Virus record (IMG/VR): IMGVR_UViG_3300027741_000082
Location: 1-54,627 of that record
Source: a virus
Taxonomy: Duplodnaviria; Caudoviricetes
DNA length: 54,627 nucleotides
Strand: one strand, 5' to 3'
Each line of letters starts with the position of its first letter. Positions within the stretch are counted from its first letter, which is position 1. The position numbers and the translations under genes are program-made. Shown one piece after another: positions 1-54,611 of the stretch. The notes below the pieces were generated by a model that was not told where the DNA came from, ran no database searches, and saw only the letters and a list, made by a program, of their open reading frames with translations.

Positions 1-138
1 GCTGATTCGTTTTCGTAATAGCCCAGCTCGGGATTGATGCCAGTGGCGATCATCATCTCGATGATCTGCTCGGTGGTCTTGCGGTAGAGGTCGCGGTACA
101 TCTGCTCTGCGGTGTAAGACATGGGGTCATCCTTTCTG
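1..138. repeat. Terminal direct repeat, left copy (circular assembly overlap)
   Basis: 1-138 matches 54490-54627; positions 13-138 identical, mismatches at 3, 6 and 12. Confidence 0.95.
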
Positions 139-160
139 TGTTGGTCCCGTCTTGTATGTC

Positions 161-189
161 AAGATAGATGGGTGATTTGACAGTGTCAA
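161..189 (-). promoter_or_regulatory. Sigma70-type early promoter with TTGACA-G-TGTCAA palindrome
   Basis: Minus strand TTGACA-N17-TATCTT upstream of the gene starting at 122 (=54611); perfect palindrome 177-189. Confidence 0.75.
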
Positions 190-261
190 GTGGGGTTGTG
201 GAAATAATTTACAAATTGTTTTTCGAAGGGCGGCTGTCCTTTGTCCTTAGAGAAGATAGAC

Positions 262-503
262 TCTATCAAACATTGTCAATGATATAGTGTGTAACCCTTT
301 GAATATAGGTAGATATCAAAATATAGGGGGTTTCCAGAATTATCATCACTTCCGTCGCGCACACAGTAAACAGAATTGTCGCCTCGTGCACGTACGCGGA
401 GACGGACCCCCCTCTGGACCGTTTCCTCGCTAAACCCCCTATAAGATGATATCCCCCTATATTCAAAGGCTTACATACTATATTTGTTACAATGTTTGAT
501 AGA
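262..503. repeat. 72-bp imperfect inverted repeat (262-333 / 432-503) around a 98-bp spacer; candidate origin or packaging site
   Basis: Manual alignment gives 61/72 complementary positions; AT-rich non-coding region between divergent transcription units. Confidence 0.85.
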
Positions 504-547
504 ACTGTGATAGTTTATAGCAGAACCGCCAGCGAAGGAGAGCATCT

Positions 548-1141
548 GTGGCCCGTTCGAAAGTGACCCACCGCCCAAAACTTGACATTGTTGTCAACCC
601 GAAGAATGAAAAGGGATTGACCGAGAAGCAGGAGAAATTCTGCCGCATCTACGCCACCGAGGACGTGACCCGCACCGAGGCGGCACGGCTTGCTGGATAC
701 ACCGAGAGCACCGCACTGGTGGCGGGCTCTAAATTCTTGAACGGCAGGGACTACCCCCAGATACTTGCCCGCATAGCCGAGCTGAAAGAGGAGCTTGGCA
801 AAAAGTATGAGGTGACCTTCGACAACCACGTCCGACAGCTGGCCCGCATCCGCGATGCCGCGATGGAGAAGCAGAACTATGCCTCTGCTGTTGCCGCCGA
901 GAAGGCCAGAGGACAGGCCGCAGGGCTCTACATCAGTCGCTCGGAGATACTGGTCGGCAAGATCGATCAGATGTCGAAGGAGGAGGTTCTTGCCGAGATC
1001 ATGCGCCTTCAGGCTGAGTTTCCCGCGCTTGCACAGGGGACAGGCCCAACCATCGACATGGTCAAGACCATGCGCTCCGAAACAGGCGAGGACATACCCA
1101 CATACGAGTCACCCGACACCCTCGCGGAGCTCGACGAATGA
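548..1141 (+). CDS. terS: Terminase small subunit
   Basis: LTEKQEKFCRIY...TEAARLAGY N-terminal HTH typical of TerS; GGAGAG RBS before GTG. Confidence 0.85.
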   Translation: MARSKVTHRPKLDIVVNPKNEKGLTEKQEKFCRIYATEDVTRTEAARLAGYTESTALVAGSKFLNGRDYPQILARIAELKEELGKKYEVTFDNHVRQLARIRDAAMEKQNYASAVAAEKARGQAAGLYISRSEILVGKIDQMSKEEVLAEIMRLQAEFPALAQGTGPTIDMVKTMRSETGEDIPTYESPDTLAELDE

Positions 1142-1611
1142 AGACCGAAAAAGCAATCTGGGAACACCTGAAAAAGGAAACCGACAAGGACGTTCACTGG
1201 ACCCGCATCGAGGCTTGGGCGGGTTCGGGTATCCCCGACCTGAACGGGGCCTATGTGTGGCCTTCTCTGTCGCAGGAAACCACCATTGAGCTGTGGTGCG
1301 AACTCAAGGTCTGTTCTACCATAAAATTTCAAGGGGATGGACTGTGGAGACCCGCGCAAATTGCATGGCAGACCAAGCGGTCCCGCGTTTCACGCAATGT
1401 CTATAACCTGATCAGCCACCCTCGGGCATGGGTCGTCAGGATTTATGGCGCAGAACACGTGACCCAACTGCACGACCCGTCGACAGAATCGCCAGAACCT
1501 TTGATGATCTTGCCCATTGGCAGGGGGATGTGGTCGGCTTTCCTCGAACTCGCGGCCTCGCGCTCGAAAGAATCGCCAGAATACAAGGACTCGACAGAAT
1601 CGCCAGTGTAA
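1138..1611 (+). CDS. PD-(D/E)XK nuclease (VRR-NUC / Holliday-junction resolvase-like)
   Basis: RIE..GIPD..W-ELK..Q.AW motif order; ATGA overlap with terS. Confidence 0.8.
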   Translation: MKTEKAIWEHLKKETDKDVHWTRIEAWAGSGIPDLNGAYVWPSLSQETTIELWCELKVCSTIKFQGDGLWRPAQIAWQTKRSRVSRNVYNLISHPRAWVVRIYGAEHVTQLHDPSTESPEPLMILPIGRGMWSAFLELAASRSKESPEYKDSTESPV

Positions 1612-1622
1612 AGACAGCGGAC

Positions 1623-1646
1623 AAAGGAAAGGGGGCTTTCGCCCCC
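1623..1646 (-). terminator. Intrinsic terminator ending the early cassette
   Basis: Minus strand GGGGGC-GAAA-GCCCCC followed by TTTCCTTT, just after the 1655 stop. Confidence 0.7.
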
Positions 1647-1654
1647 CTGCCCCC

Positions 1655-2416
1655 TTAGTGTGCCATGATGACAATGGACTTGCGGACCTTTGCCGAGTGC
1701 CCGCCGCATGCTTTGCAATCGGTGCAGGAAACCTTTGCGCCCGCCTCTTTCGATGCCGGACAAATCGCCTCGTTTGACAAGCGGCTTTCATCTTTCGCCC
1801 GAACTCTAAACGTGCGCCAGCCCGCGTCCCATGCTTGCAAGGCTTCGGCTTCATTGTCCGCGCTTGCCATGGTCAAGGCTTTGAACTTAGCGAACTCTGG
1901 CTTGTGCCACTGATGAGAATAACCGTTAACCATCGCCGCCCGCTTAACAGCCCGCGCCCACATTGCAAAGGGTGCAGCAGCAGGATCCCCGTAGGAACCC
2001 ATGCGAAAGGCTTTACCTTCGAACAAATCGGGCAGGATCCTAGGATCATAGTCTACAATCGGGCGAGCATATCGCCCGCGCCCCAAGGCTTTCCATGTCG
2101 AAAGAACCGACTGGAACACCTTAACATAGCAAGGTTTGATGCCCGCCGCTTTCGCGACACTAGGCCGCCGCTTGCAGTCTCCGCACACTGACGCGTCATC
2201 GCCGGACCGTAAAGCCTCGACCGGATTAATGTCGGACCGAACAATAAAAGTTTGGACCATTGCGCCAGTCTTATCATTATTGCTTTTTGTCGTTATGCGG
2301 TTTGCGATAACAGCAATCGGCTTGCCGTCCAATCGACTCGGACCCTCGTAAAGAATCACGCCCGCGAACTGTCCGCGCTTTAAAGCTTCGACCATTGCGT
2401 CCACTGTCTTAATCAT
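1655..2416 (-). CDS. Cys-rich phage protein, GP88-like (possible Fe-S or metal binding)
   Basis: CGDC..CYV, FRMGSYGDP, YSHQW, CPA..CTDCKAC..IMAH motif series; AGAAAGGA RBS. Confidence 0.55.
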   Translation of the reverse strand: MIKTVDAMVEALKRGQFAGVILYEGPSRLDGKPIAVIANRITTKSNNDKTGAMVQTFIVRSDINPVEALRSGDDASVCGDCKRRPSVAKAAGIKPCYVKVFQSVLSTWKALGRGRYARPIVDYDPRILPDLFEGKAFRMGSYGDPAAAPFAMWARAVKRAAMVNGYSHQWHKPEFAKFKALTMASADNEAEALQAWDAGWRTFRVRAKDESRLSNEAICPASKEAGAKVSCTDCKACGGHSAKVRKSIVIMAH

Positions 2417-2591
2417 TGTTAGAATCCTTTCTATGGTTAGAAGCTATAAATTTTTGTCCGGCTGCAATCATTGCTTCTTCAACTTCTTCGCTATCAATAA
2501 TCCATTGCGTATCGTGTGGCCTAAAGATTGCCACAATATACCCCGCCGCTTCGAGTTTATTAATGGTTTCAACCACCTCGTTAATGTCCAT
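2409..2591 (-). CDS. Small acidic early protein
   Basis: Start moved to MDINEVV after AGAAAGGG RBS; first gene after the promoter at 2627-2655. Confidence 0.7.
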   Translation of the reverse strand: MDINEVVETINKLEAAGYIVAIFRPHDTQWIIDSEEVEEAMIAAGQKFIASNHRKDSNND

Positions 2592-2626
2592 AGGATAACC
2601 CTTTCTTCGGTTTAAAAGACTCATTA

Positions 2627-2655
2627 GGTTTAACAGGATCCGGTGACATTGTCAA
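2627..2655 (-). promoter_or_regulatory. Sigma70-type early promoter with (G)TGACA-T-TGTCAA palindrome
   Basis: Minus strand TTGACA-N17-TAAACC with TGn extension. Confidence 0.7.
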
Positions 2656-2810
2656 CTAATAAATCGCCAAAATAAATCGCCGCGATTTATTGCGCCCGCC
2701 GGAATCGCCCGCCGCGCCCGCTCGAAAGAATCGCCAGTGTTTAAGATAGAACCCGAGAGAATCGCCCGCCGCGCCTCGTTAGAATCGCCAGTGTTATAAT
2801 ATACAGGCAT

Positions 2811-2837
2811 AAAAAAAGGGCCCGCCGAAGCGGGCCC
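2811..2837 (-). terminator. Intrinsic terminator (cUUCGg hairpin plus U7)
   Basis: Minus strand GGGCCCGC-TTCG-GCGGGCCC-TTTTTTT. Confidence 0.9.
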
Positions 2838-2855
2838 CCGTAGCAGGGCGACAAG

Positions 2856-3083
2856 TTAGAGCATGGCTTTCAATTCAGCCTTGATCCGCTTGGCGGTTTC
2901 GCCCCGCCAAGTGGCAGCGTTCGCGAGAAAGTAGCGAACGATGCTATCTCCAGAATCATAGTAAAAAGGGTCTTCGATGGAACTTAGCGTCGCCATGGCT
3001 TGCAGATATGGAACCGCTCCGAAGTAGGGCTTCTTCCAATCGACAGATATCTCGCGGGCGATAGTGTGCAATGGACGTGTCAT
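2856..3083 (-). CDS. Small hypothetical phage protein (75 aa)
   Basis: Start moved to MTRPLHTIAREI after AGGAGAAAG RBS. Confidence 0.8.
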   Translation of the reverse strand: MTRPLHTIAREISVDWKKPYFGAVPYLQAMATLSSIEDPFYYDSGDSIVRYFLANAATWRGETAKRIKAELKAML

Positions 3084-3108
3084 GTGCTTTCTCCTAATGA
3101 CATGTGGT

Positions 3109-3128
3109 GGGCCCGCCGGAGCGGGCCC
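3109..3128 (-). repeat. Intergenic GC hairpin, copy 2 (no U-tract)
   Basis: GGGCCCGC-TCCG-GCGGGCCC between a stop codon and the next RBS. Confidence 0.8.
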
Positions 3129-3135
3129 GATAGGG

Positions 3136-3414
3136 TTAGTCGTTCGTGATGACAGGCAGGGCCGCTTGCATGGTGTAGATCCACTGGTCCACATCAGCAA
3201 TGGCCTGATCATACTGGCCCCGCTTGTAGACCTTGCCTGTAATCTTTCCGGCCCTCTCAAGAGAAGCCTTCGGAGTAGCAGTGCGGGTTAACCGCATGCC
3301 ATGCTTGATAGCCTTCAGAGCATGCTTAACCGCGAAAGCATGCAGTAACCGTGTCGCGTCAGGCCCGACATACGCGGTAACCCCTTCGCCTCGCTTTGCA
3401 ATGTATGAGTCCAT
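3136..3414 (-). CDS. Hypothetical early protein
   Basis: Start moved to MDSYIAKR after AAGGAG RBS. Confidence 0.75.
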   Translation of the reverse strand: MDSYIAKRGEGVTAYVGPDATRLLHAFAVKHALKAIKHGMRLTRTATPKASLERAGKITGKVYKRGQYDQAIADVDQWIYTMQAALPVITND

Positions 3415-3451
3415 AATCTTTCTCCTTAACCTGAACCGTTCAGGCCATATA

Positions 3452-3480
3452 GGTTTATCAGTGACCTTTGACAGTGTCAA
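3452..3480 (-). promoter_or_regulatory. Sigma70-type early promoter with TTGACA-G-TGTCAA palindrome
   Basis: Minus strand TTGACA-N17-TAAACC with TGn; perfect palindrome 3468-3480. Confidence 0.75.
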
Positions 3481-3585
3481 CAAATTATTTTGCGCCTCGA
3501 CCGGATTGTTGCGCCCGCCGGAAACGAAAAAGCGGGCCCGACTGAACCGCCGCGCCCGCTCGCTAGAATCGCCAGTGTTTAAAGA

Positions 3586-3834
3586 TTAGTCCGCTAGCAT
3601 CTCGCCGACACGGTCGGTGATAGATTGCCAATCGTCGCCCGACATGTGCTCCTTATAGATCATGTCGACAATCGCCAGTGCCCGCTCCGGCGTCACTGTC
3701 ATCTCTTGCTCTGCCGCAACCTCATAGATATCCTCTACCGATATCGATAGTAGAACCCTAACCCCGTTCGAATGCAACACGTCAAAGGCTCTCTGGATAC
3801 GGTCGTCTTGTCTTGCGTCACTGATGATAATCAT
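3586..3834 (-). CDS. Small acidic early protein
   Basis: 82-aa ORF with AGGAGAAAG RBS. Confidence 0.75.
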   Translation of the reverse strand: MIIISDARQDDRIQRAFDVLHSNGVRVLLSISVEDIYEVAAEQEMTVTPERALAIVDMIYKEHMSGDDWQSITDRVGEMLAD

Positions 3835-3855
3835 GGTCTTTCTCCTATGGTTGGT

Positions 3856-3875
3856 GGGCCCGCCGAAGCGGGCCC
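3856..3875 (-). repeat. Intergenic GC hairpin, copy 3 (no U-tract)
   Basis: GGGCCCGC-TTCG-GCGGGCCC; flanks shared with the 3109 copy. Confidence 0.8.
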
Positions 3876-3882
3876 GATGGGG

Positions 3883-4260
3883 TTAAGCGAGGATCGAGTC
3901 GCGGGCCTTGAACCCGACTGTCGTATCGTAGGGCTTATAGTGTTCGCCAAACATAACTTCGAAGTAGGCATGGGGCCCGAACGTCGACCAACGACCCTGC
4001 CCGCTTGACCCCTTCCAGTCCCAGATATGCATGACGAACCCTGTGAAGCTCTCGGGCCCGCCGACCTCGAACAGCCATTCGCGAGTGACCTTACCGCCGA
4101 GATCATCAGACTTGATCGATGGGATATTCAGGATCGACTCGATATGGCGGGCGGACACCCCGACAAGTTCTCCGGTCTTCCAAGTCTGGATACCGTGCCC
4201 GACGTCGTCCAGTGTGATGATCCGCATGGGGATCACGTAGCGTGATGTTTCTTTTGTCAT
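3883..4260 (-). CDS. Hypothetical early protein
   Basis: 125-aa ORF, first gene after the promoter at 4312-4340. Confidence 0.75.
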   Translation of the reverse strand: MTKETSRYVIPMRIITLDDVGHGIQTWKTGELVGVSARHIESILNIPSIKSDDLGGKVTREWLFEVGGPESFTGFVMHIWDWKGSSGQGRWSTFGPHAYFEVMFGEHYKPYDTTVGFKARDSILA

Positions 4261-4311
4261 GTGACTTTCTTTCTTTCTCTACGATTAAGAACCACTCTCA
4301 ACCGTGCCTAT

Positions 4312-4340
4312 ACTCTACATGATACAATTGACATTGTCAA
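4312..4340 (-). promoter_or_regulatory. Sigma70-type early promoter with TTGACA-T-TGTCAA palindrome
   Basis: Minus strand TTGACA-N17-TAGAGT; perfect palindrome 4328-4340. Confidence 0.8.
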
Positions 4341-4621
4341 CCTATACCTTAGTCGTAAGTAAAACTACTTAGTCTCGGGTCCCTTGGCAGATTTCCAGCT
4401 GTCAGGTTTCCGACGGTTTAAATCGCCGACCCCCCTTTTAGGCCCGCCCGCTCGCAGGACTCACCTAAAAATCCGATTTTCCCCGGAACGGCAGCAACTT
4501 CAAAACATTTGGCCTACCCCCTAATTGTCAACTAATAGTAATGGGTCCCCTACCCCCACCCCATAATAAAAATTTCAAAAACTATTGGACCGCGTTGACA
4601 TTGTAGTGTACCGGTTAATAA

Positions 4622-4704
4622 CCGAGGTCAGAGGTTTTTTGCTGTTTCCCCTCTGTTTAGGTGGACCACAGGAGAACAGCGTCAGGTCCACCACTCGGAA
4701 CCTC
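4622..4704. ncRNA. Candidate structured element (interleaved pseudoknot helices)
   Basis: Pairings 4641-4650/4671-4680, 4660-4667/4685-4692, 4622-4626/4694-4698, 4631-4636/4699-4704. Confidence 0.4.
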
Positions 4705-4708
4705 CCAT

Positions 4709-4737
4709 AAAAAATGGGGAGCCGAAGCCCCCCATTT
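4709..4737 (-). terminator. Intrinsic terminator of the acidic-protein gene
   Basis: Minus strand ATGGGGGGC-TTCG-GCTCCCCAT followed by a T-run. Confidence 0.8.
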
Positions 4738-4759
4738 ATTGCTTTGTAGGTTGTGAGGG

Positions 4760-4987
4760 TTAGGCGAGGTCTTCTTCTGACCACTCGTCGTCTTCGCCTT
4801 CTTCGTCTTCTTCAACGATGATGTAGTCATCGTCCATCAGGTCGTACAAATGATCGATGAGCATATAGAGTGCACCGATGCGCTCTGGCAACGAGCATTC
4901 CATAAATTCGTCGGACAGGTTGAACTGAACGAGATCGATCTCGCCCTCGTTACGTTCTATAACAGCAGTACCGATAACAACAGACAT
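4760..4987 (-). CDS. Very acidic 75-aa protein, candidate DNA mimic
   Basis: Start moved to MSVVIG after GGGAG RBS; 25 of 75 residues are D/E, 2 R, no K. Confidence 0.65.
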   Translation of the reverse strand: MSVVIGTAVIERNEGEIDLVQFNLSDEFMECSLPERIGALYMLIDHLYDLMDDDYIIVEEDEEGEDDEWSEEDLA

Positions 4988-5073
4988 GGCAAACTCCCAC
5001 AGGTGAGGTGAACGTCTGCAAGCTACAAACAAAAGATGACAAATAAAAGACTTGCTTTTTCCATATGTTGCAC

Positions 5074-5206: not shown

Positions 5207-6679
5207 TTGCCCTCTGAACTTGCACATAGCCTCCCGGAAGACGCGGCTCGCCAATACGCTCGTCTTTTGGAAAGAGCGGCGAGACTTGCCACTCTAGAGA
5301 AGGCCAAGGTTGGCTTTCTTGATTTCGTTAAGTTTGTGTGGCCCGGGTTTATTGCCGGGAGACACCATAGGATTGTTGCTGAGAAGCTTGAGGCCATGGC
5401 GCGTGGCGAGCTCAAGCGTTTGATCATCAACATGCCGCCGAGGCATACGAAGTCTGAGTTTGCCAGCTACCTGTTTCCGGCTTGGTTCATAGGGCAGATG
5501 CCAGACAAGAAGATTATGCAAGCGACCCATACCGCTGATCTGTCGATCCGGTTTGGGCGTAAAGTGAGAAACCTAATGGATGGGGATATGTTCAAGCCCA
5601 TCTTTCCAGAAGTGAAGCTACGGTCAGATTCCAAGGCAGCGTATCGCTGGGAGACCGATCAAGGAGGAGAGTACTATGCAGCGGGTGTTGGGGGTAATAT
5701 CGCAGGGCGCGGCGCGGATCTTTTCATTGTTGACGATCCGCACTCAGAACAAGACGCCCTCTCACCAACAGCAATGGAAGGCGCATGGGAATGGTATCAA
5801 TCCGGACCACGCCAGCGTCTTCAGCCCGGAGGGGCGATCCTTGTTGTTATGACCCGGTGGGGGGAGGCGGATCTGACCGCCCGCCTTTTAAAGCAGCAAG
5901 CGACAGATCCCAAAGCCGATCAGTGGGAGGTCGTGGAGTTTCCGGCAATATTGGATAGCGGTGAGCCGCTCTGGCCTGAGTACTGGAAGCTTGAGGAACT
6001 TGAGGGGATCAAGGCTTCGATCACCCTGTCCAAGTGGCAAGCGCAGTACATGCAGCAGCCAACGGCGGACTCGGTGTCCATCATCAAGCGTAGCTGGTGG
6101 AACGTGTGGGAGCAGGAGAAGGTTCCCCGTTTGCAATACGTCATGCAGTCTTACGACACGGCGCACACCAAAAAGAAGACGGCTGACTACAGCGCGATCC
6201 AGACGTGGGGGGTCTTTTACCCCAGAGAGGATGGCCCGGCGAACGTCATCTTGCTGGACTGCAAGAAAGGCAGATGGGAGTTCCCCGAGCTCAAACGCAT
6301 TGCCCTTGAAGAGTACAAGTACTGGGAACCGGAGACCGTGCTGATCGAAGCAAAGGCTGCGGGCCTCCCTCTGTTACAGGAACTCCGGAGCGTAGGCATC
6401 CCGGCGGTGGACTTTACGCCGAGCCGTGGGAATGATAAGCATGTACGTCTGAACTCGATTGCTTCCCTGTTTGAAGCGGGGCTTGTCTGGAGGCCAGAGG
6501 CATCTTGGGCGGAAGAGGTTGTCGAGGAGATAGCCGCGTTCCCCAACGGTGAGCACGACGACTTGGTTGACTGCGCTTCACAGGCCCTCATGCGATTCCG
6601 GCAGGGTGGCTTTGTTACACATCCGGATGACTACACCATGGACGAAGGTCCGAGGTCAACGTACAGGGTTTATTACTGA
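5207..6679 (+). CDS. terL: Terminase large subunit
   Basis: MPPRHTKS Walker A, FIVDDP Walker B, SYDTA and HDDLVD nuclease motifs; TTG start after GGAG. Confidence 0.95.
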   Translation: MPSELAHSLPEDAARQYARLLERAARLATLEKAKVGFLDFVKFVWPGFIAGRHHRIVAEKLEAMARGELKRLIINMPPRHTKSEFASYLFPAWFIGQMPDKKIMQATHTADLSIRFGRKVRNLMDGDMFKPIFPEVKLRSDSKAAYRWETDQGGEYYAAGVGGNIAGRGADLFIVDDPHSEQDALSPTAMEGAWEWYQSGPRQRLQPGGAILVVMTRWGEADLTARLLKQQATDPKADQWEVVEFPAILDSGEPLWPEYWKLEELEGIKASITLSKWQAQYMQQPTADSVSIIKRSWWNVWEQEKVPRLQYVMQSYDTAHTKKKTADYSAIQTWGVFYPREDGPANVILLDCKKGRWEFPELKRIALEEYKYWEPETVLIEAKAAGLPLLQELRSVGIPAVDFTPSRGNDKHVRLNSIASLFEAGLVWRPEASWAEEVVEEIAAFPNGEHDDLVDCASQALMRFRQGGFVTHPDDYTMDEGPRSTYRVYY

Positions 6680-10327: not shown

Positions 10328-12241
10328 ATGGCTGATAATTATCAGGGGGTATTAAAGGGATTAGCAAGTTTAAATTCAGGGCTTGATTCAGCCGGAAGAT
10401 TTAACGCGCAAAATTATTTGATGAGTAATTTGCAAGAAGGGCAAATGATAATTCCTGCCGATGTTTTAAAGGCACACCCAGAGTTACAATCATCTTTAAA
10501 CCAAATTCTCTCATCTCATGACATGAATAGCAATCAGTTTTTGGTTGGAGATGAGGGTATGAGGTATACTGGATTTGGCCCGCAGATTCATTTAGGATCT
10601 GGATGGACCACTGGAAGTGCTGCTTACGGACCATATAGCGGTCAAACAACAGACGTTAATTTTCAAAACGCCTTTGCCGGTCCATACCTAGAAAACAATC
10701 CTGTTTCCCCAGATCAATATGATTTACGGGCAGACTTACCATCTCTCAAAAGTCAGCCTGTAAATCATATTGATACACAAAATGAAGATTATAAATTTGA
10801 CCAAACGGAACCCACTTCACAGGTTTTAAACACTGGGTTTAAAACCCAACCTGATGTGGTGACAGCACAACCGATTTTGCCAGATTTTGGTGATGTTCAT
10901 GTATTGCCACCAGATCCGCGTTCAGACTATACATTTTTTAATGTACAACCCAACCCAACAACTGATTTTATCAAAACCGCACAAGACACGGGCGATCAAG
11001 CTCTTAATCTAGGGGATCAATCAAAATATACATATCAGCCAGTCACCACTGACCCAGCGGGTGGAGTTAGCGGGGGTAGCAACGCTACAAAGGATATGAG
11101 CATAAGTTTTGTTAATCGAGACGATTTAGACCCACAAGAGCAGGCTAACGTTAACAAAGCTTTTGCTGCCATGCAAACCAATACGCAAACACCAACGTTT
11201 GAACAAAACCCGCTTTTAACAAAACCAGATCCAGGTTATGAAGAAAATAAATTTAACCAAACCAATACACCGACAACATTTTCATTAACAGAAACGGACA
11301 CGGACGCTACTAGCCCTAAAATAGACCGGCAGACTATTGATGAAGTTATTAAAAATGAGCCAGTTATTAAAAATGAGCCAGTTATTAAAAAAGAGCCAGT
11401 TGTTGAAAGAAGTTCAGACGTTGCAAAAACGCTTGATTTTTTACAGGCAAAAGATGAGGCTGAAGCGCAAGAGTGGAAAGATTATAACCAGCGTGTGTTA
11501 GAAAATGCCAAGGGTATTGGCAATATGGTTGATACCCTAAGTGGCACAAATTTAACACAAACCGTTATGGACGCAATTACAACTTCATTACAAAATAAAC
11601 AAAATGAGAACGCAGAATTAACCAAGGATCTTTTAAAAAATCCACTAACAAGTAACAATACGATTGATCTTCTTAAAGATTCTTTAACCAAGGATCAAGA
11701 AACAATCGATGCTTTTAAAAAATCCACTACCCAAACCGTCGTTGATACAACTACCGATGGAAAAACTACTACCGATGGAAAAACTACTACCGATGGAAAA
11801 ACTACTACCGATGGAAAAACTACTACCGACGGAAAAACTACTACCGACGGAAAAACTACTACCGACGGAAAAACTAGTTTAGACGATGGTACTGGCAAAG
11901 GGAAAGGACCGGGAGATGGTACTGACGATGGTACTGGCAAAGGGAAAGGACCGGGAGATGGTACTGACGATAGCTCTAAGACTCCACCAAAAGACATTAT
12001 TATAAACCCAAAAGAGCCGTATCAGGAACCTAAAATTGTTTCATTGGAGACAAACACAACCAAAACCGTGTCCCCAGTAAAATATGATGTTTCAAAATTT
12101 CTTGGGAGCTTGGGGAAACCTACTCCTACTGCCTCCGTATATAAATCGCATCCTATATCAGTGGCTCCTACTCAACTTGGTATAGGACAGTTCTATAAAC
12201 CATACTTCCCACTTGTTCCCTACCAAAGGAGATACCCATGA
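10328..12241 (+). CDS. Thr/Asp-rich repeat-containing protein, putative internal virion protein
   Basis: 637-aa ORF with AT-rich codons; TTTDGK x7, DDGTGKGKGPGDGT x2, VIK(N/K)EP x3. Confidence 0.75.
   Translation: MADNYQGVLKGLASLNSGLDSAGRFNAQNYLMSNLQEGQMIIPADVLKAHPELQSSLNQILSSHDMNSNQFLVGDEGMRYTGFGPQIHLGSGWTTGSAAYGPYSGQTTDVNFQNAFAGPYLENNPVSPDQYDLRADLPSLKSQPVNHIDTQNEDYKFDQTEPTSQVLNTGFKTQPDVVTAQPILPDFGDVHVLPPDPRSDYTFFNVQPNPTTDFIKTAQDTGDQALNLGDQSKYTYQPVTTDPAGGVSGGSNATKDMSISFVNRDDLDPQEQANVNKAFAAMQTNTQTPTFEQNPLLTKPDPGYEENKFNQTNTPTTFSLTETDTDATSPKIDRQTIDEVIKNEPVIKNEPVIKKEPVVERSSDVAKTLDFLQAKDEAEAQEWKDYNQRVLENAKGIGNMVDTLSGTNLTQTVMDAITTSLQNKQNENAELTKDLLKNPLTSNNTIDLLKDSLTKDQETIDAFKKSTTQTVVDTTTDGKTTTDGKTTTDGKTTTDGKTTTDGKTTTDGKTTTDGKTSLDDGTGKGKGPGDGTDDGTGKGKGPGDGTDDSSKTPPKDIIINPKEPYQEPKIVSLETNTTKTVSPVKYDVSKFLGSLGKPTPTASVYKSHPISVAPTQLGIGQFYKPYFPLVPYQRRYP
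11345..11398 (+). repeat. 18-bp tandem repeat x3
   Basis: GTTATTAAAAA(T/A)GAGCCA. Confidence 0.95.
11747..11965 (+). repeat. 18-bp tandem repeat x7 followed by 42-bp repeat x2
   Basis: ACTACTACCGA(T/C)GGAAAA 11747-11872; GACGATGGTACTGGCAAAGGGAAAGGACCGGGAGATGGTACT 11882-11965. Confidence 0.95.
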
Positions 12242-12426
12242 AGTCCCCAATCCAAAGTGCTAAACAAAAGGATGTTCCAATCATCCACGATCTGGAAATC
12301 GTTAATCAAGGCACGATTCCTTACAAGCATCAAGAAGATGTCCCTGTCACCCCTGCTCCTAAAGGTCGTCAGGAAGCGCGTGGATTTGGTCTTCAGATGC
12401 GTCCAGTCAAATATCTCGTACGGTAA
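12238..12426 (+). CDS. Small hypothetical late protein
   Basis: AGGAG RBS, ATGA overlap, ARGFG motif. Confidence 0.7.
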   Translation: MKSPIQSAKQKDVPIIHDLEIVNQGTIPYKHQEDVPVTPAPKGRQEARGFGLQMRPVKYLVR

Positions 12427-23314: not shown

Positions 23315-25228
23315 ATGGCTAGCACTTATTCAACGAATCTTGGTCTCGAACTCATAGGGACGGGCGATCAGTCCGGTACATGGGGTGCTACAACCAATAC
23401 TAACCTCGGCACTCTGCTGGAAGAAGCAATCGGCGGGTATGTAACTCAAGCTATTACAGACGGCTCGGCGGCGACTACCACGATCACAATCCCCAACGGT
23501 GCTTCGGGTGTAGCGCGAAACATGTTCATTGAGATGACAGGCGCGTTGACGTATGCCACAACTAGCTTGATTGTTCCTGCCAAGGAAAAAATGTATTTTG
23601 TTTACAACAACACCTCCGGTGGTTTTGCTGTAACCGTGAAAGTGTCGGGTCAGACGGGGATACTCGTCCCCAATGGGAAGAAGGTAGTACTAACGTGTAA
23701 CGGCACAGACATCGTAGAGGCGCATACCGCTATCGTTGGCAATGCCACAATGGGTGGAACCCTCGGTGTAACGGGCGCGACTACTCTTAGTTCAACCCTC
23801 GGTGTAACGGGCGCGACTACTCTTAGTTCAACCCTCGGTGTAACGGGCGCGACTACTCTTAGTTCAACCCTCGGTGTAACGGGTATAACGACTGTTGCCG
23901 CGGGTAGCGCAGCACTCCCTGCCATTGTATCAACCACCGGCACAGCCGACACTGGTTTGTGGTTCCCCGCCGCCGATACAGTTGCGGCAAGTACGGGCGG
24001 CACTGAACGCATTCGTATCGACTCCAGCGGCAACGTGGGGATTGGGACAAGTTCGCCAAGCGCATCAGCAAAATTGACTCTTGCCGGGACATCAACAAAC
24101 TCAGCACTGCTTGTTTACAATAACACTGCTGCCGCTAATACAGGACTTTTTGGTTCTGTAGCAGCAATAACAGGTTCGGGAACTAGCAATGACCTTGCCA
24201 TTGGGGCGTTTGGTTCGTCCAACATGACGTTCTATACAAATGCTACCGAACGTATGCGCATCGACACCAGCGGCAACGTAGGGATTGGGACAAGTTCGCC
24301 AAGCACAAAGTTTACAGTAAGCGGAACACAAACAATCCGCGGCGCAGGAACTGATAACGGCATTTATACATGCCTTTATATGGACGAAAACACTGCACCA
24401 TACACAAGTACCTTTGCTGGTTATACGCTATCCCTAAACACTGGCAACAACAGCGCAAGAACATCAAGACTTTACATCGACCCCAGCGGCAACGTAGGGA
24501 TTGGGACAAATTCGCCGGGGGCTTTACTTCATGTAGGAACCACAACCGCAAAAATTAGGATTGGCGCAACTGCTGGTAGCGAATACTTGGATATTTCTAG
24601 GGATAGTGCAACTGGAAATATAATTTATAACGCCGCGCAAACCAGTTTCGGCACTCACAATTTTCAAATTGCTGGCATTGAAGCAATGCGCATCGACACC
24701 AGCGGCTATCTGCTGGTTGGTTGCACTTCTATTCCAAATGTAGGTATAGCAGGTCAATATGGTTTTTCTTCTTCTGTATCTGAAGTAGTCATTTCTAAAA
24801 ATACTTCAGGAAGTACACCTGCTATATATATCAGAACTAGTGCTGGTGCATCAAAAACACCAATAACTTTTTATAATGATACTTCACAAGTCGGTAGCAT
24901 TACCACGTCGACAACAGCAACGGCTTACAATACATCATCTGATCATCGCTTGAAAGAAAACGTGCATCCCATGACAACTGGGCTGGCGACAATCAGCGCG
25001 TTAAAGCCTGTCACATATGATTGGATTGGCGGTGATGAAAAAGGAGAAGGTTTTATTGCCCATGAATTGCAAGAGATTGTTCCTCTTGCGGTTTTTGGCA
25101 AAAAAGACGCAGTTGATGCTGATGGCAAACCTAAATATCAAGGCGTAGACTACAGCAAAATTGTTGTTCACCTCGTCGCCGCTATCAAAGAACTATCCGC
25201 AAAAGTTACCGCACTGGAGTCAAAATAA
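23315..25228 (+). CDS. Tail fibre with C-terminal peptidase S74 intramolecular chaperone
   Basis: RIDxSGNVGIGT repeats; SDHRLKEN..LKPVTY.W..GFIAHELQ..VDYSK. Confidence 0.88.
   Translation: MASTYSTNLGLELIGTGDQSGTWGATTNTNLGTLLEEAIGGYVTQAITDGSAATTTITIPNGASGVARNMFIEMTGALTYATTSLIVPAKEKMYFVYNNTSGGFAVTVKVSGQTGILVPNGKKVVLTCNGTDIVEAHTAIVGNATMGGTLGVTGATTLSSTLGVTGATTLSSTLGVTGATTLSSTLGVTGITTVAAGSAALPAIVSTTGTADTGLWFPAADTVAASTGGTERIRIDSSGNVGIGTSSPSASAKLTLAGTSTNSALLVYNNTAAANTGLFGSVAAITGSGTSNDLAIGAFGSSNMTFYTNATERMRIDTSGNVGIGTSSPSTKFTVSGTQTIRGAGTDNGIYTCLYMDENTAPYTSTFAGYTLSLNTGNNSARTSRLYIDPSGNVGIGTNSPGALLHVGTTTAKIRIGATAGSEYLDISRDSATGNIIYNAAQTSFGTHNFQIAGIEAMRIDTSGYLLVGCTSIPNVGIAGQYGFSSSVSEVVISKNTSGSTPAIYIRTSAGASKTPITFYNDTSQVGSITTSTTATAYNTSSDHRLKENVHPMTTGLATISALKPVTYDWIGGDEKGEGFIAHELQEIVPLAVFGKKDAVDADGKPKYQGVDYSKIVVHLVAAIKELSAKVTALESK
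23759..23883 (+). repeat. 36-bp perfect tandem repeat x3.5 in the tail fibre
   Basis: ACCCTCGGTGTAACGGGCGCGACTACTCTTAGTTCA. Confidence 0.95.
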
Positions 25229-44784: not shown

Positions 44785-46600
44785 CCTTGAAACCTACGAC
44801 CCTGACCTGAAGAGCAAGGGCAGCGGTTGGCCTATCAAGAACGGGCACGTTATCGGTATCGCCGTAGCGGTGCGCGGGGCTGAGTGGTACTTCCCCATCC
44901 GCCATGAGAACGGACCAAACCTTGATGTGAAGGCTACCCTTCGCTGGGTCAAGTCCATCTGTAACCTAGCAGATTGTACATACATATTTCATAATGCAAT
45001 GTACGACGTGGGTTGGTTGCGGGCTGAGGGCGTCGAGGTAGCGGGCCGCATCGTCGATACGATGGTTTCTGCTCCGCTTCTGGACGAGAACCGTTTCAGC
45101 TATGCGCTGAACTCGCTTGGTCGGGACTATCTCAATGAGACCAAGGACGAACGGGATCTGCGTGAGGCGGCACTGTCCATGGGGATCGACCCCAAGGCAG
45201 AGATGTACAAGTTGCCAGCGCACTTCGTCGGTCGGTATGCCGAGCAGGATGCGGCACTGACCCTGCGCTTGTGGCATCACCTCTACGGTCTGCTTGTGAA
45301 GGATGACCTCCTGTCAATCTTCGATCTGGAGATGCGCGTGTTCCGCGTGATCTTCGAGATGCGTAGCCGTGGGGTGCGCGTCGATCTGGAGAAGGCTGAC
45401 GGTGTGAAGCAGAAGCTTCTTGCCGAGGAGAACGCCCTGCTGTCCAAGATCAAGAAGACTTCTGGTGTTGAGGTCTCTGTCTGGGCAGCAGCCAGTGTGG
45501 CGAAAGCTTTTGATGCGGCTGGCCTTGAGTATCCACGCACTGCGGCAACCGGAGCCCCGAGCTTCACAAAGAATTTCCTGTCAAACCACAAGGCCGATCT
45601 GCCCAAGATGATTGTGAAGGCTCGTGAACTGAACAAGGCCCGCACCACCTTCATTGATTCGATCACCAAGCATGAGAGCAACGGTCGGATCTACGCTGAC
45701 ATCCACCAGCTGCGGAGCGACGAGGGCGGCACGATCACGGGTCGGTTCAGCTATTCGAACCCCAACCTTCAGCAGCTGCCAGCTCGCGATGAGTACATTG
45801 GCCCACTGATTCGCGGCCTGTTTCTTCCGGAAGAGGGCAACCTCTGGGGGTCCTTCGACTATTCCTCACAGGAACCACGGATCGTCGTGCACTATGCGGC
45901 GGCAGTGAAACTCCCGAAAGCTGATGACTTTGTCGATGAGTACCACAGGGACCCACGGTCTGACTTTCACCAGATTGCTGCCGATATTGTAGGTGTTCCT
46001 CGTAAGCAAGCAAAAACCATCAACCTAGGCCTGTTTTACGGGATGGGCGTGAACAAGCTAGCGGAGCAGCTGGGTTTGGATCTTGAGAGTGCGAAGGATT
46101 TGTTTGCCGTCTACCACAAAGAAGTTCCATTCGTGAAGCAGCTGTCCACCTACGCGAGCGGAGTGGCGGAAGAGAAGGGTCGTATCCGTACCCTGCTTGG
46201 TCGCGTCGGTCGGTTTGACAAGTGGGAGCCGACGGCGTTTGGTTCCAACAAACCTCTGCCCTTTGACGAAGCCGTAAAAGAATACGGTGGCCCCCGCAAT
46301 ATCAAGCGGGCGTTCACGTACAAGACCCTGAACAAACTGATCCAAGGGTCGGCGGCAGACCAGACGAAGAAGGCGATGGTTGACCTGTACGAGAACGGCA
46401 TCTTGCCAATGGTTCAGATCCACGATGAACTGGCGGTGTCGGTGGACAGTCCGGAGATGGCGCACAAGGTGATTGCCATCATGGAGAACTGCGTTCAGTT
46501 GGCAGTCCCGTCGGTTGTCGATGCAGAGGTGGGGCCTTCATGGGGTGAGGCCACCCACTCGCTTGGAGAGGATGGCCTCTTTTGGGGGGTCAAGAAGTAG
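44693..46600 (+). CDS. polA: Family A DNA polymerase with 3'-5' exonuclease (Leu762 type)
   Basis: DLET, HNAMYD, YAEQD; DYSSQEPR motif A, RKQAKTINLGLFYG motif B, QIHDEL motif C. Confidence 0.96.
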   Translation: MSTPYQYEHKTEWVMPDSYPNLSDAHEIAIDLETYDPDLKSKGSGWPIKNGHVIGIAVAVRGAEWYFPIRHENGPNLDVKATLRWVKSICNLADCTYIFHNAMYDVGWLRAEGVEVAGRIVDTMVSAPLLDENRFSYALNSLGRDYLNETKDERDLREAALSMGIDPKAEMYKLPAHFVGRYAEQDAALTLRLWHHLYGLLVKDDLLSIFDLEMRVFRVIFEMRSRGVRVDLEKADGVKQKLLAEENALLSKIKKTSGVEVSVWAAASVAKAFDAAGLEYPRTAATGAPSFTKNFLSNHKADLPKMIVKARELNKARTTFIDSITKHESNGRIYADIHQLRSDEGGTITGRFSYSNPNLQQLPARDEYIGPLIRGLFLPEEGNLWGSFDYSSQEPRIVVHYAAAVKLPKADDFVDEYHRDPRSDFHQIAADIVGVPRKQAKTINLGLFYGMGVNKLAEQLGLDLESAKDLFAVYHKEVPFVKQLSTYASGVAEEKGRIRTLLGRVGRFDKWEPTAFGSNKPLPFDEAVKEYGGPRNIKRAFTYKTLNKLIQGSAADQTKKAMVDLYENGILPMVQIHDELAVSVDSPEMAHKVIAIMENCVQLAVPSVVDAEVGPSWGEATHSLGEDGLFWGVKK

Positions 46601-46904
46601 GCTCTTCTTCAGAGGCTCTTCGAATCATTGCCTTCAGCAAGGCCTTGTCGGAGGGGGGCATGTAGTACCCCTCTCCGTAGCGACTGTGAATGTGAAACCC
46701 CTTGGTTGCCAGCACGTGGCGCAGACGGTAGACCGCCATACGAACCGTTGATTTTGAGTGCTGGATGCGCGGGTTGTAATCCACAATAGCCTGATAGAGT
46801 TCGTCCTTGGTCACCTCCTGCTTGAGCAAGAGCAGTTCGAGGAGCATCGACAGCTGTGCTGAAAGGTTCAATCCAGTTTTAATCTCCTTCAGTAATGCGT
46901 TCAT
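46590..46904 (-). CDS. Stand-alone OmpR/PhoB-type winged-helix DNA-binding protein
   Basis: L..LL....VTKDEL..TVRMAVYRLRHVL....IHSRYGEGY; no receiver domain. Confidence 0.75.
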   Translation of the reverse strand: MNALLKEIKTGLNLSAQLSMLLELLLLKQEVTKDELYQAIVDYNPRIQHSKSTVRMAVYRLRHVLATKGFHIHSRYGEGYYMPPSDKALLKAMIRRASEEEPTS

Positions 46905-47052: not shown

Positions 47053-47469
47053 CTACTTCTTCGCCTTCTCTTCAACTGTAGGTACATCTTGTACAGGTGA
47101 ACCATAGAGCGTCTCCCTCAGATCGTGTTCTACTTGGGCCAGCACCACGTCGCGCATGTCCGAGCTCAAGGCTCCTCCGTCCTTTGCCATTGCAAGCTGT
47201 GCTGCAAAAGAGTCGTAAGCAATCGAGTCGATCCATGAGTCGGTATTGTTGGGGTCAAACGACAGGCGACTTTGTTTGACGCAGGATAGAATGACCACGA
47301 TGTCGTAAGCCGTGATGGTTTTGTTCAGGCGAATTGCCGCAAGTGCCGCCGCTCGTGTTGCCATTGGGTACATAGGTCCATATTGTTTGCCGCGTTCCTC
47401 GGTGATAGAAAGAGCCTTGCTCAAGATATCTTGATACCTCATAACTTCTTCTCCCAACTTATTGCTCAT
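47053..47469 (-). CDS. DUF6378-like protein
   Basis: ERGKQYG..VKQSR..DSWID..AY. Confidence 0.65.
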   Translation of the reverse strand: MSNKLGEEVMRYQDILSKALSITEERGKQYGPMYPMATRAAALAAIRLNKTITAYDIVVILSCVKQSRLSFDPNNTDSWIDSIAYDSFAAQLAMAKDGGALSSDMRDVVLAQVEHDLRETLYGSPVQDVPTVEEKAKK

Positions 47470-47789
47470 GCGTTACCAGCGGTTTTAAAATTCTCGGATA
47501 CAATTTCCATCGAACAATTGTACCCCTCTTTGCAGATGACGAGGAACTCCTCTAAGGGAATGCTGCTTTCCACAGCCAGATTGCAGATGTGGTACAGCAT
47601 GTTTAGCGCAAGGTACTCCCGACAAACATCGGCATCGTAGTCCCTCTCTTGTGCTACGTCGTAGAAAGCCCCAGTGATAGAGGCGTAGGCAAAGCTAGAT
47701 GCTGCCTTCCATGCTGCCTCATCCGGAAGGATGAGGCTCAATGCCTTGGCCCGTTCTTTTGCATTTACGGTGGATAAAAAATCAACCAT
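47466..47789 (-). CDS. Hypothetical protein
   Basis: Coupled ORF in the minus-strand operon. Confidence 0.7.
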   Translation of the reverse strand: MVDFLSTVNAKERAKALSLILPDEAAWKAASSFAYASITGAFYDVAQERDYDADVCREYLALNMLYHICNLAVESSIPLEEFLVICKEGYNCSMEIVSENFKTAGNA

Positions 47790-48240
47790 CTTCTTTCTCC
47801 AGTTTGCGAGTAAAAACTCTATCGTAATGTGTGGCGCACCAGCTGGTGCAATTGTGGGTAGGCTCTCCGCAAACGATGGGGTTGACCTCTCGGTTCATAA
47901 CCCACCGACATTGATAACGGCTGATGTCAAACAGCCTTGGCTTGTCGTCCATGCCCAGCTTGACCTTAAACAGGTTGGGGCTGTCCTCTATCCTTGGTCT
48001 TGTCCGCTTTACCAAAGGCCGCATGGCGGACAAAGGTGGATGCTTTCTTTCCGGGGTCACCGCCTTGACGGGTCTGGGCACACGGGGTTTACGCTCTGTC
48101 CGGAAGTTCCGGTGGATGAAACCAAGCACAGCATTGCGGGTCTTGTTGATCTCCGCCCCGATCTCCCGAGCGGACTTACCAAGCATCATCCCTGCCTTCA
48201 AGGTTTCTATGTCGTCCTCTGTCCATAAGATGTTCGCCAT
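47782..48240 (-). CDS. gcrA: GcrA-family cell-cycle regulator homologue
   Basis: WTEDDIETLK..G.SAREIG.....TRNAVLG..HR HTH; C-terminal CRW..CG....SWC..H; start moved to MANILW. Confidence 0.88.
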   Translation of the reverse strand: MANILWTEDDIETLKAGMMLGKSAREIGAEINKTRNAVLGFIHRNFRTERKPRVPRPVKAVTPERKHPPLSAMRPLVKRTRPRIEDSPNLFKVKLGMDDKPRLFDISRYQCRWVMNREVNPIVCGEPTHNCTSWCATHYDRVFTRKLEKEDG

Positions 48241-48503
48241 TACTCTAGGTGCTCCGGAATCTTTACTTGGTCCTGTGCCCACTTGATGTAGCCGCTATTG
48301 ATGGCGTCAAGTGCTTCAGTCAGCAGGGCCTCCAGCTCCTTCATAGACTTTGCCTTTGCTTGAAAGGTCTCGGTGTCGTAGCCCCACATGTGGTTGTTGC
48401 AGTAGTGTGCAAACCTTATTTCATATGTTGTTTCTTCTCCGTTTCCTCTGCGAAACAAGTGAAGCTTCTTTTCATGTACGTCATTGATATTAATGTACCG
48501 CAT
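48240..48503 (-). CDS. Hypothetical protein
   Basis: Start moved to MRYININD after AAGGAG. Confidence 0.65.
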   Translation of the reverse strand: MRYININDVHEKKLHLFRRGNGEETTYEIRFAHYCNNHMWGYDTETFQAKAKSMKELEALLTEALDAINSGYIKWAQDQVKIPEHLE

Positions 48504-48875: not shown

Positions 48876-48943
48876 CGCACTTAATCCTTTCTATGTCTAA
48901 GTGGAACTGTAAAGTGTCACTGTTTAGTTACATTGTCAAGCGA

Positions 48944-51463: not shown

Positions 51464-51582
51464 CAAAAGAAACTCCGGACTGCCTCAACCAGTTCATCAG
51501 CGTAGTAAATGAACGGCAGCATCAAGGCAAAGAACAGGGTGTTGACGATCAGGTCGACCGTCTTGGGTGAAGGTTCGCTCAT
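51463..51582 (-). CDS. 39-aa membrane protein (not in ORF track)
   Basis: MSEPSPKTVDLIVNTLFFALMLPFIYY..; overlaps the neighbouring genes at both ends. Confidence 0.55.
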   Translation of the reverse strand: MSEPSPKTVDLIVNTLFFALMLPFIYYADELVEAVRSFF

Positions 51583-51878
51583 TTCTTTTTCTTCCTGTTC
51601 ATTACCCACACGATAGCCATTCGGGTTGACAGGTTGGGTCTGCGGCCTCCGCAGTCTCTGATGAGCCCATCCTGCCTCAACTCGGTGAAACGCGGCCTGA
51701 TTGCCAGAACGCTCTCTTCCAGAATGGCGGCGGCTTCATCGGCGGTGAGCCCCTTCTTGTGCTTCTTCAGGATGTCGATAACCAGACGGCGCAAGGTTCC
51801 TGCCCGTCCGGCAATCATCGCAGCGGCATCCTGACTGGTGTCTGTCCCCCGATAGCCCGCTCCCACATAATCACCCAT
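51579..51878 (-). CDS. Winged-helix DNA-binding protein
   Basis: TSQDAA..GLTADE.A..L....IRPR.TEL...GLI; start moved to MGDYVG. Confidence 0.75.
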   Translation of the reverse strand: MGDYVGAGYRGTDTSQDAAAMIAGRAGTLRRLVIDILKKHKKGLTADEAAAILEESVLAIRPRFTELRQDGLIRDCGGRRPNLSTRMAIVWVMNRKKKK

Positions 51879-52155
51879 GGTCGATCTCCACTTCATAAAC
51901 GTAATGCCACTCGGTGTTCTCATGATCCACCTCTGGATGCTCGAAGGTATACATGTCGCCTTGGTGAAACGGCACGGGTTCATCAAAGTCGGTGAGACCA
52001 GCCTCGCTTGAACCTTCGATGTAGTCCCGTTGCCAGATTTCCCACATTTCAGAGACGAGCTGGAGAGCTCGGGCCTCGGTGGCGCAGACGTTGACCACTG
52101 GCTCGCTCAAATTGCGACCGTCTGAAACGACCACCCATACTTTGTCCTTTGTCAT
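51871..52155 (-). CDS. Acidic hypothetical protein
   Basis: Start moved to MTKDKVW. Confidence 0.7.
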   Translation of the reverse strand: MTKDKVWVVVSDGRNLSEPVVNVCATEARALQLVSEMWEIWQRDYIEGSSEAGLTDFDEPVPFHQGDMYTFEHPEVDHENTEWHYVYEVEIDHG

Positions 52156-54230: not shown

Positions 54231-54611
54231 TCAGCAGAGCTCGGCACTGGTGTCATACCAGCGGACCTGTTCATCGTTGTCGATGGGGATTTCATCATAA
54301 GGATCGATAACACAGTAGCTGATTGTGTCGTCAGCATCCTCGGCTGGACGGTCATAGGTCCAGTAGGGGATCTCGCCGCTGTCCTCTGCCTTTTGCACTG
54401 CGATGTCGCCGATGCGGTTCATCACGCGGGAGAAGTCGGATCCGCTAAGGCGGTTCATCAGATGCAACGCGCCCATGTCGAAGAGGTTTGCGGACTCGTT
54501 CTCGTAATAGCCCAGCTCGGGATTGATGCCAGTGGCGATCATCATCTCGATGATCTGCTCGGTGGTCTTGCGGTAGAGGTCGCGGTACATCTGCTCTGCG
54601 GTGTAAGACAT
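54231..54611 (-). CDS. Acidic hypothetical protein, first gene after the promoter at 161-189
   Basis: AGAAAGGA RBS; 5' end lies in the terminal repeat. Confidence 0.75.
   Translation of the reverse strand: MSYTAEQMYRDLYRKTTEQIIEMMIATGINPELGYYENESANLFDMGALHLMNRLSGSDFSRVMNRIGDIAVQKAEDSGEIPYWTYDRPAEDADDTISYCVIDPYDEIPIDNDEQVRWYDTSAELC

Follow-up and report, generated by a model that had tools for sequence, protein, structure and literature searches.

Strand-polar GANTC-bearing repeats between terS and terL of a GcrA-encoding phage are candidate promoter-proximal GcrA boxes

The DNA analyzed here is IMG/VR record IMGVR_UViG_3300027741_000082, a freshwater phage of the Caudoviricetes; the window is the entire record (54,627 nucleotides, nt; CheckV completeness 100). 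Between the terminase genes terS and terL it carries a repeat family built around the GANTC-containing motif GAATCGCC, and elsewhere it encodes a homolog of GcrA, a regulator of the cell cycle. The GAATCGCC copies are the cores of strand-polar intergenic modules of 23-50 nt, they follow the 3' end of each leftward gene unit between terS and terL, and most of them fit the published GcrA consensus, while the phage GcrA is apparently competent. The reading tentatively preferred here, although somewhat short of an even chance, is that the repeats are promoter-proximal GcrA boxes which would be methylated by the host methyltransferase CcrM and would help to open an adjacent weak promoter.

The initial annotation had listed eight plus-strand copies of GAATCGCC, each preceded by CG-NNN, and a ninth, degenerate one, and all of these were recovered. 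The eight matches lie at 1486, 1570, 1597, 2702, 2728, 2759, 2782 and 3566, all on the plus strand (8/8, binomial p = 0.008), and their number is above that of every one of 100 dinucleotide shuffles (mean 2.0, maximum 6; 0/100 reach eight). CG stands at -5/-4 in 8/8 copies and also in the ninth, which lies at 4445-4465, reads GACTCACC and is 81% identical to a 23-nt family, CTCG-NNN-GAATCGCCAG, that repeat finding assembles from six of the copies (type A). Type B copies read GAATCGCC-CGCC. A full module runs from an optional type B copy through a GC-rich spacer and a type A copy to CCAGT and an AT-rich box (AT box), and is present three times on the plus strand: at 2698-2748 (type B at 2702, GC-rich spacer, type A at 2728, AT box TAAGATA), at 2752-2801 (type B at 2759, type A at 2782, then TGT-TATAATA) and at 3544-3588, where a decayed type B copy (GAACCGCC, 3544-3551) and a type A copy (3566) are followed by an AT box sharing bases with the stop codon of gene 3586-3834. 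The first cluster consists of type A copies at 1473-1495, inside the 3' tail of the open reading frame (ORF) 1138-1611, at 1557-1579 and at 1584-1614, the last continuing into CCAGTG and TAAAGA. GAACCGCC is found at 523-530 as well as at 3544-3551, and at both places close relatives (G006 and L095) read GAATCGCC, i.e., GAATC has decayed to GAACC; the copy at 523-530 lies just upstream of the terS start. The degenerate copy at 4445-4465 runs into a conserved CCTAAAAATCCGATTTTCCCCGG hairpin element. A conserved CCTAAAAA element with a hairpin (window 4464-4487) comes after GANTC sites here, and is also found after GANTC arrays in distant low-GC relatives (L137 at 11248-11271; L243 at 11744-11762 and 12290-12310).

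The placement of the copies follows the gene units. Six small genes form a leftward cassette of three units (1655-4260, minus strand, from ORF calls and profile matches), and between terS and terL every leftward unit has copies directly past its 3' end (3566; 2702-2789; 1486-1604), with the copy at 4445-4465 beyond a hairpin at 4487-4472. All are 80-165 nt upstream of the next leftward promoter except the first cluster, which sits within the rightward ORF 1138-1611, in its 3' tail, and is followed by no leftward promoter. Each cassette unit begins at a palindromic TTGACAnTGTnA element (2644-2655, 3468-3480 and 4328-4340; at 2644-2655 the element scan gives TTGACAATGTCA on the minus strand, a -35 element with palindrome), and this element recurs at the head of the leftward early operon, at 177-189 and 48928-48939. 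In all, it heads five leftward units, with eight strand matches at these five loci against 0.19 expected, and looks like a common early promoter with a built-in operator. Because TTGACAnTGTnA is common to the cassette promoters and to the leftward early operon, the cassette is probably of the early class, and the label of early cassette given to it by the initial annotation is reasonable.

Across the window GANTC occurs 113 times against 228.6 expected from a first-order model (ratio 0.49), while the observed/expected ratios of seven control palindromes of the same composition range from 0.61 to 1.23. Such an under-representation is the signature looked for in a phage of a CcrM-bearing host, and a restriction system of the same specificity would leave the same one. 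Because the genome as a whole holds only this 0.49 of expectation, the intergenic sites that are kept stand out. The YGAKTCK preference named in the initial annotation agrees with the consensus TGATTCG/YGAKTCK given in the accessible part of Haakonsen et al. 2015 (PMC4647560), and 7/8 copies fit it, with CGATTCT on the minus strand; the one that does not, at 2702, has CGATTCC there. In the terS-terL interval 13/18 GANTC sites fit YGAKTCK, as opposed to 24/95 elsewhere (Fisher p = 2e-4), 12 of the 13 in the leftward sense, and outside the repeat 6/10 interval sites fit (p = 0.02). The sole other tight GANTC cluster in the genome comprises three GAGTCG sites, 12-15 nt apart, at 47210-47241, inside gene 47053-47469 (DUF6378) and two genes downstream of gcrA; YGAKTCK is matched by two of these sites.

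The phage-encoded GcrA claimed by the initial annotation is real. The ORF at 47782-48282 (minus strand, ATG at 48240) matches PF07750 (53.6 bits, with the cut-off at 26.9; E 4.2e-14), its residues 20-159 covering profile positions 3-147 of 155 and hence both the N-terminal DNA-binding and the C-terminal sigma70-binding parts. Four of the five residues reported to contact DNA in the solved GcrA-DNA complex (R33, N34, I37, G38 and H41, in the accessible part of PMC5887438) are identical (R33, N34, G38 and H41), I37 being replaced by L; in alignment to 7ye1_G and 5yiu_A the phage protein reads TRNAVLGFIHR against TRNAVIGKVHR. The phage GcrA is apparently competent. At the end of the early operon, gene 46590-46904 (minus strand) codes for a protein of 104 residues with nothing but a winged-helix DNA-binding domain of the OmpR/CtrA type (PF00486, E 3e-8).

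The -10-like boxes noted earlier beside four of the copies are all where the initial annotation put them: TATAAT at 2795, preceded by TGT and forming a perfect TGnTATAAT at 2792-2800, TAAGAT at 2742, and TAAAGA at 3580 and 1609. None of the four was called as a full promoter by a consensus promoter scan, because they are without a -35 element, which agrees with the earlier remark that the best box, at 2795, lacks a -35 consensus. The AT box after four copies is a symmetric TATNNTA and therefore presents TAnnnT on both strands; after CCAGT the sequences of relatives vary, yet they keep TATNNTA (TATAATA, TATATTA, TATCTTA) at a fixed distance.

Since the box can be read both ways, two directions of transcription have to be compared. 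According to the accessible parts of the Caulobacter studies, sites in GcrA-regulated promoters lie around -20 and at +2 to +30 (PMC4647560) or, from the transcription start, at -20±1, -30±2 and +5 to +30 (PMC9976885). Read rightward, with the AT box taken as the -10, there are 8-9 nt from GAATC to the hexamer and the GANTC center falls at -23 to -24, between the published -20±1 and -30±2 windows; read leftward, 9-12 nt separate the hexamer from GATTC and the center falls at +6 to +9, inside the +5 to +30 window. The distance from box to GANTC would thus favor leftward firing, in the sense of the cassette. In contrast, the polarity of the copies, constant despite genes changing strand, would favor rightward firing, which would be antisense to the cassette and head for terL as proposed in the initial annotation; this direction is compatible with the arrays that precede rightward genes in all-rightward relatives. 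In either reading of the AT box, the putative GcrA box has its consensus strand pointing away from it, as the consensus strand points away from the -10 in the two solved GcrA-polymerase complexes (scaffolds in the accessible part of PMC9976885).

Close relatives (88-95% nucleotide identity) were collected from IMG/VR with a pattern scan and a search by TerS and comprise G006 (a complete 57-kb record), L095, L044, L122, L123, L069, L011 and L124. Each has 6-12 copies of GAATCGCC, all on the terS strand, and over nine close genomes G precedes AATCGCC in 45/46 distinct type A/B contexts. A more distant set was drawn from TerS homologs of 61-82% identity (33 lineage representatives, later 42). There, the only core that recurs is AGAATCG, which is found in repeats of lineages whose terS is 73-74% identical (G001, CGAGAATCGAACG three times; L140, AAAGAATCGCGG), and G001 also carries the GANTC-bearing TGATTCGCAAGG twice. 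Lineages of the 73-78% group have 9-nt units CGAYAGRTY, only some of which create GANTC, and, upstream of terL, L186 and L263 have as many as ten tandem units of 26 nt that end in GTGGAATC. Low-GC relatives bear GANTC-N5-GANTC arrays upstream of rightward genes: L196, L243, L246 and L248 show GANTC-N5-GANTC(-N5-GANTC) with varying N, and in L243 every array comes after a terminator and about 90-130 nt before a rightward gene.

The distribution of gcrA follows that of the arrays in part. Among 15 related records, PF07750 is found above the cut-off in four (G001, G002, G006 and G012), below it in one (G009) and not at all in ten. Arrays or enrichment are seen in 4/5 near-complete GcrA-positive genomes (G000, G006, G001 and G012, not G002) and in 1/6 GcrA-negative ones (G011, not G003, G004, G005, G007 and G015); G004, whose own interval runs across the end of its record, was left out of the GANTC comparison of the terS-terL interval. 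What counts as an array was defined post hoc, the lineages are few and related, and G000 and G006 belong to a single one. The co-occurrence of arrays with gcrA, which the initial annotation had proposed as a check, is a suggestive trend that holds for most genomes and breaks down in two: G002 has a full-length GcrA, yet no array and 0/4 consensus sites, and G011, 100% complete, lacks GcrA, yet has six GANTC in 150 nt. GANTC avoidance does not track phage gcrA either, being strongest (0.33 of expectation) in the complete gcrA-less relative G005 and mild (0.71-0.77) in low-GC lineages. A family hidden Markov model recovered short proteins of 81-115 residues with only the C-terminal part of GcrA in L133, L135, L142, L149 and L161; these may be GcrA derivatives that lack a DNA-binding domain and keep the sigma70-binding part.

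Taken as promoter-proximal GcrA boxes, the repeats would work as follows. The GANTC heptamer, CGATTCT on the minus strand, would be read as a GcrA box once the GANTC in the repeats had been methylated by the host CcrM; GcrA riding on sigma70 RNA polymerase, whether the phage's own (made from the leftward early operon), the host's or both, would bind the methylated box, and its docking would help to open the adjacent weak promoter that lacks a -35 element. Any methylation would come from the host, because the window has no match to the methyltransferase families PF01555 and PF02086. A bolder version, which has only a small chance of being right, holds that methylation-gated GcrA-dependent promoters, or sites capturing GcrA and CcrM, face every early unit and form a phage-borne epigenetic timer. 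Only fully CcrM-methylated phage DNA would then fire, i.e., the incoming genome or, during the CcrM window of the host, the genomes then present, with convergent transcription into the early cassette and on towards terL, so that timing would be set by the replication-driven loss of N6-methyladenine together with the host cell cycle, in effect a hijacked cell-cycle module.

A number of results, among them the rightward center at -23 to -24, the absence of a phage methyltransferase of the two families searched and the behavior of G002 and G011, weigh against the repeats being GcrA boxes, and the others may be gathered here. The terS-terL interval holds 18 GANTC in 4069 nt against 17.0 expected from its composition, and the enrichment over background on which the initial annotation had staked its proposal does not exist as an enrichment over chance: the interval escapes the genome-wide GANTC depletion and is not enriched. 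It does stand out against the depleted background of the genome (1.88 GANTC per kb outside it, about half of expectation; P = 0.001), but no longer once the eight repeat copies are removed, when ten sites are left (P = 0.24). The fit of the copies to YGAKTCK amounts in effect to one event with a prior of 0.25, because the copies descend from one motif. Conservation inside the repeat spans 17-23 nt, far more than a 7-base-pair (bp) monomer site, and the copies show no extra constraint, because the surrounding intergenic DNA of the close relatives is itself 86-93% identical (copies conserved at 40-48 of 48 positions). A -10-like box stands beside only 4/8 copies and beside none of the other four, there is no preferred distance from GANTC to TAnnnT among 365 sites in the 33 lineage representatives, and the majority of GcrA promoters described in the accessible part of PMC9976885 have one box. 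Finally, GANTC lies inside same-strand 8-mers with at least three copies in 8/42 lineage representatives, while the same count for the seven control palindromes is 4-12 (mean 6.4), and the top repeats of other lineages (GCGGGCCT, GATGGATGGA, GTCGGCGG and CTCTGCGC) are without GANTC. At a fine scale, GANTC clustering in seven genomes ranked only 6th to 13th of 16 by dispersion when set against 15 other XYNY'X' palindromes.

The main alternative involves a different protein. The whole repeat family could be read by a phage or host regulator other than GcrA that recognizes a half-site (A/G)AATCGC(C), with GANTC incidental, and that represses or activates the leftward early promoters through operator-like sites and auxiliary upstream copies, a reading that is possible though on the unlikely side. 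AATCGCC occurs 18 times on the plus strand and twice on the minus strand, and of the 13 within 1487-4421 five are not GANTC, the core being preceded by A at 1763, 2662, 2675 and 4421 and by C at 3670. The AATCGCC scan also places two copies of AAATCGCC, neither of them a GANTC, at 2661-2688 on the plus strand; the second forms a perfect 7-bp inverted repeat, AAATCGC-C-GCGATTT (2674-2688), about 20-45 nt upstream, in the leftward sense, of the -35 at 2644-2655. This palindrome looks like the operator of a dimeric regulator, and it too speaks against GcrA; an inverted half-site abutting a promoter is found in the AAATCGCC sub-family only and not in the GAATCGCC copies, and the AAATCGCC copies have different flanks. 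At the early promoter 48928-48939, too, AATCGC lies directly against the -35, the CTCG and CAG flanks are conserved beyond any 7-bp box, and each lineage has its own high-copy same-strand repeat in the terS-terL interval, most of them without GANTC. On the other hand, the type A and B copies retain the G in all but one of their contexts, it is AGAATCG, with the G and without the CC, that is shared across lineages, the upstream copies are all direct and none inverted, and the first cluster has no promoter to control. The phage does encode other candidate DNA binders, namely the OmpR-type winged helix noted above and a weak winged-helix-like match at 51579-51986, but no candidate protein is tied to the site.

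The position of the first cluster raises the question of DNA packaging. Its two blocks, about 65 nt apart and in a 9-nt phase (CGnnAGAAT|CGCCAGnnn), are found 345-456 nt after terS, and at 330-520 nt after terS many relatives, including GcrA-negative ones and some lineages whose complete records have no GcrA, hold lineage-specific short tandem repeats such as TCGACAGAT three times and CGATAGATC arrays, CCGACAGCA, GATGGA repeats or GACGAAGAGC four times; L196 keeps five GANTC at this position though its next gene is inverted relative to L243. Together with a polarity constant over 3 kb and with record ends that overlap, as expected of a circularly permuted genome, this is what a polar packaging signal recognized by TerS (pac type), perhaps methylation-sensitive, would look like, the first cluster being the functional site and the cassette copies secondary. 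Such a signal is nevertheless judged improbable here, as copies spread over 3 kb and set at each unit boundary beside -10-like boxes are not needed for a pac site, and part of the first-cluster periodicity may be coding, because between the two blocks the ORF tail shows conservation at the protein level. In phage P1 the methylation-regulated pac is a compact element adjoining the packaging genes, made of clusters of short repeats that carry the site of a host methylase (Dam). The repeats of this phage resemble it in being short-repeat clusters with a host methylase site beside packaging genes, and differ in carrying CcrM-type sites and in extending as a family over 3 kb at unit boundaries. Held very improbable, finally, is the reading in which the copies are duplicated module boundaries without a function of their own, homologous promoter/terminator spacers that spread by duplication, are kept alike by recombination and serve at most as crossover points for the shuffling of small genes. 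Segments 2687-2744 and 3506-3582 are homologous over their full length, a 54-nt tandem duplication makes up 2698-2798, breakpoints in the alignments of close relatives (1647/1650, 3583 and 3831) fall at a repeat or hairpin with whole genes swapped between them, the copies are conserved no better than their surroundings, and decayed copies exist. What such boundaries leave unexplained is that 8/8 copies keep one polarity across both gene orientations, that 6-12 copies are maintained in every close relative, that TATNNTA is kept through sequence turnover, and that the first cluster lies in a coding tail, where there is no module boundary. Some further candidates were rejected. For an origin of the motif in a host or prophage, the collection of species genomes yielded 0 matches to GCTCGNNAGAATCGCCAGTGT, and a looser two-copy pattern gave at least 120 single matches over unrelated phyla, taken as chance; readings of the repeat as a sigma54-type or extracytoplasmic function (ECF)-type promoter, a boxA-like element or a DnaA box fail on spacing (compared by eye with consensus forms).

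If the repeats are nevertheless taken as GcrA boxes, the GcrA/CcrM promoter class of Caulobacter crescentus, in the accessible parts of Haakonsen 2015 (PMC4647560), Wu 2018 (PMC5887438) and Wu 2023 (PMC9976885), is the closest known system, of which the phage sites are candidate members by consensus. They share with it a GANTC with extended-consensus flanks, a site that at four of the eight copies lies beside a -10-like element without a good -35, a GcrA with conserved contact residues and, as in the two solved complexes, a consensus strand that points away from the -10 box. Unlike the Caulobacter sites, those of the phage lie inside a strictly conserved repeat of 17-23 nt and on a phage genome, in arrays of 1-4 copies, 23-31 nt apart, whereas GcrA promoters mostly have one box. 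Two phage precedents are related. In the 'lytic deferment' described for Alphaproteobacteria phages with clusters of CtrA boxes (Mascolo 2022, PMC9437464), as here, sites for a host cell-cycle regulator in phage intergenic DNA would couple expression to the cell cycle; in the phages scanned, the accessible part of that study reports a positional asymmetry of CtrA sites alone, those of GcrA, SciP and DnaA showing none. Unlike those phages, the window has no meaningful CtrA boxes, with one TTAA-N7-TTAA match against 0.64 expected. The phiCbK-like Caulobacter phages also encode GcrA homologs (Gill 2012, PMC3556154), and the resemblance lies in a GcrA family member in a lytic phage of a presumed alphaproteobacterium. 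Their proposed action is on host replication genes, and no phage cis-sites are described in the accessible part of that report, whereas here there are candidate cis-sites on the phage itself. Phage-encoded GcrA has thus been known since phiCbK, while the literature search, in sources partly accessible, found no GcrA-site arrays and no cis-target on a phage. If the repeats are GcrA boxes, the phage family would offer a compact and testable example of a virus that ties its own transcription to adenine methylation by the host, with the naturally decayed GAACC copies as built-in controls; if they are not, what remains is a clear picture of the modular boundary elements of a phage group that is widespread in freshwater and marine habitats and related to the pelagiphages HTVC023P and HTVC027P.

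As for the wider setting, the record ends overlap, since one N-terminus is encoded at both ends of the window (3-122 and 54231-54611, minus strand). A search for sequencing runs listed 24, all of them DNA in contig form, and no RNA run. The terS gene (548-1141, plus strand, PF03592) is followed on the same strand by ORF 1138-1611, with a match to phrog_2165 over residues 1-95 only, and terL begins at 5207, rightward. The cassette genes lie at 1655-2416, 2409-2624, 2856-3086, 3136-3414, 3586-3834 and 3883-4260, all on the minus strand; a nucleotide search of named phages with window positions 1-5000 gave as sole match Gordonia phages (180-220 nt, about 70% identity), underlying gene 2856-3086. 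Hairpin prediction places an intrinsic terminator of the leftward unit 3414-2856 at 2816-2839 and other terminator-like hairpins at 1629-1648, 3535-3548 (weaker) and 4472-4487, all on the minus strand. In the control region from which the leftward early operon and terS diverge there is a large inverted repeat, 262-333/432-503, whose 72-nt arms are 85% complementary and 98 nt apart. The 500-nt gap from the cassette to a small leftward gene (4760-4987) holds a CyVA-1 RNA (Rfam RF02965) at 4621-4699 on the plus strand (52.6 bits against a gathering score of 41.4), directly downstream of a rightward TTGACA-type promoter at about 4595; it was the sole match of the Rfam scan, and a tRNA scan gave none. 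In-frame perfect tandem repeats occur at 11750-11876 (18 nt × 7.1), 11882-11971 (42 nt × 2.1) and 23758-23883 (36 nt × 3.5), all inside long rightward ORFs, the former two in a low-GC stretch at 10-12 kb (GC 0.40).

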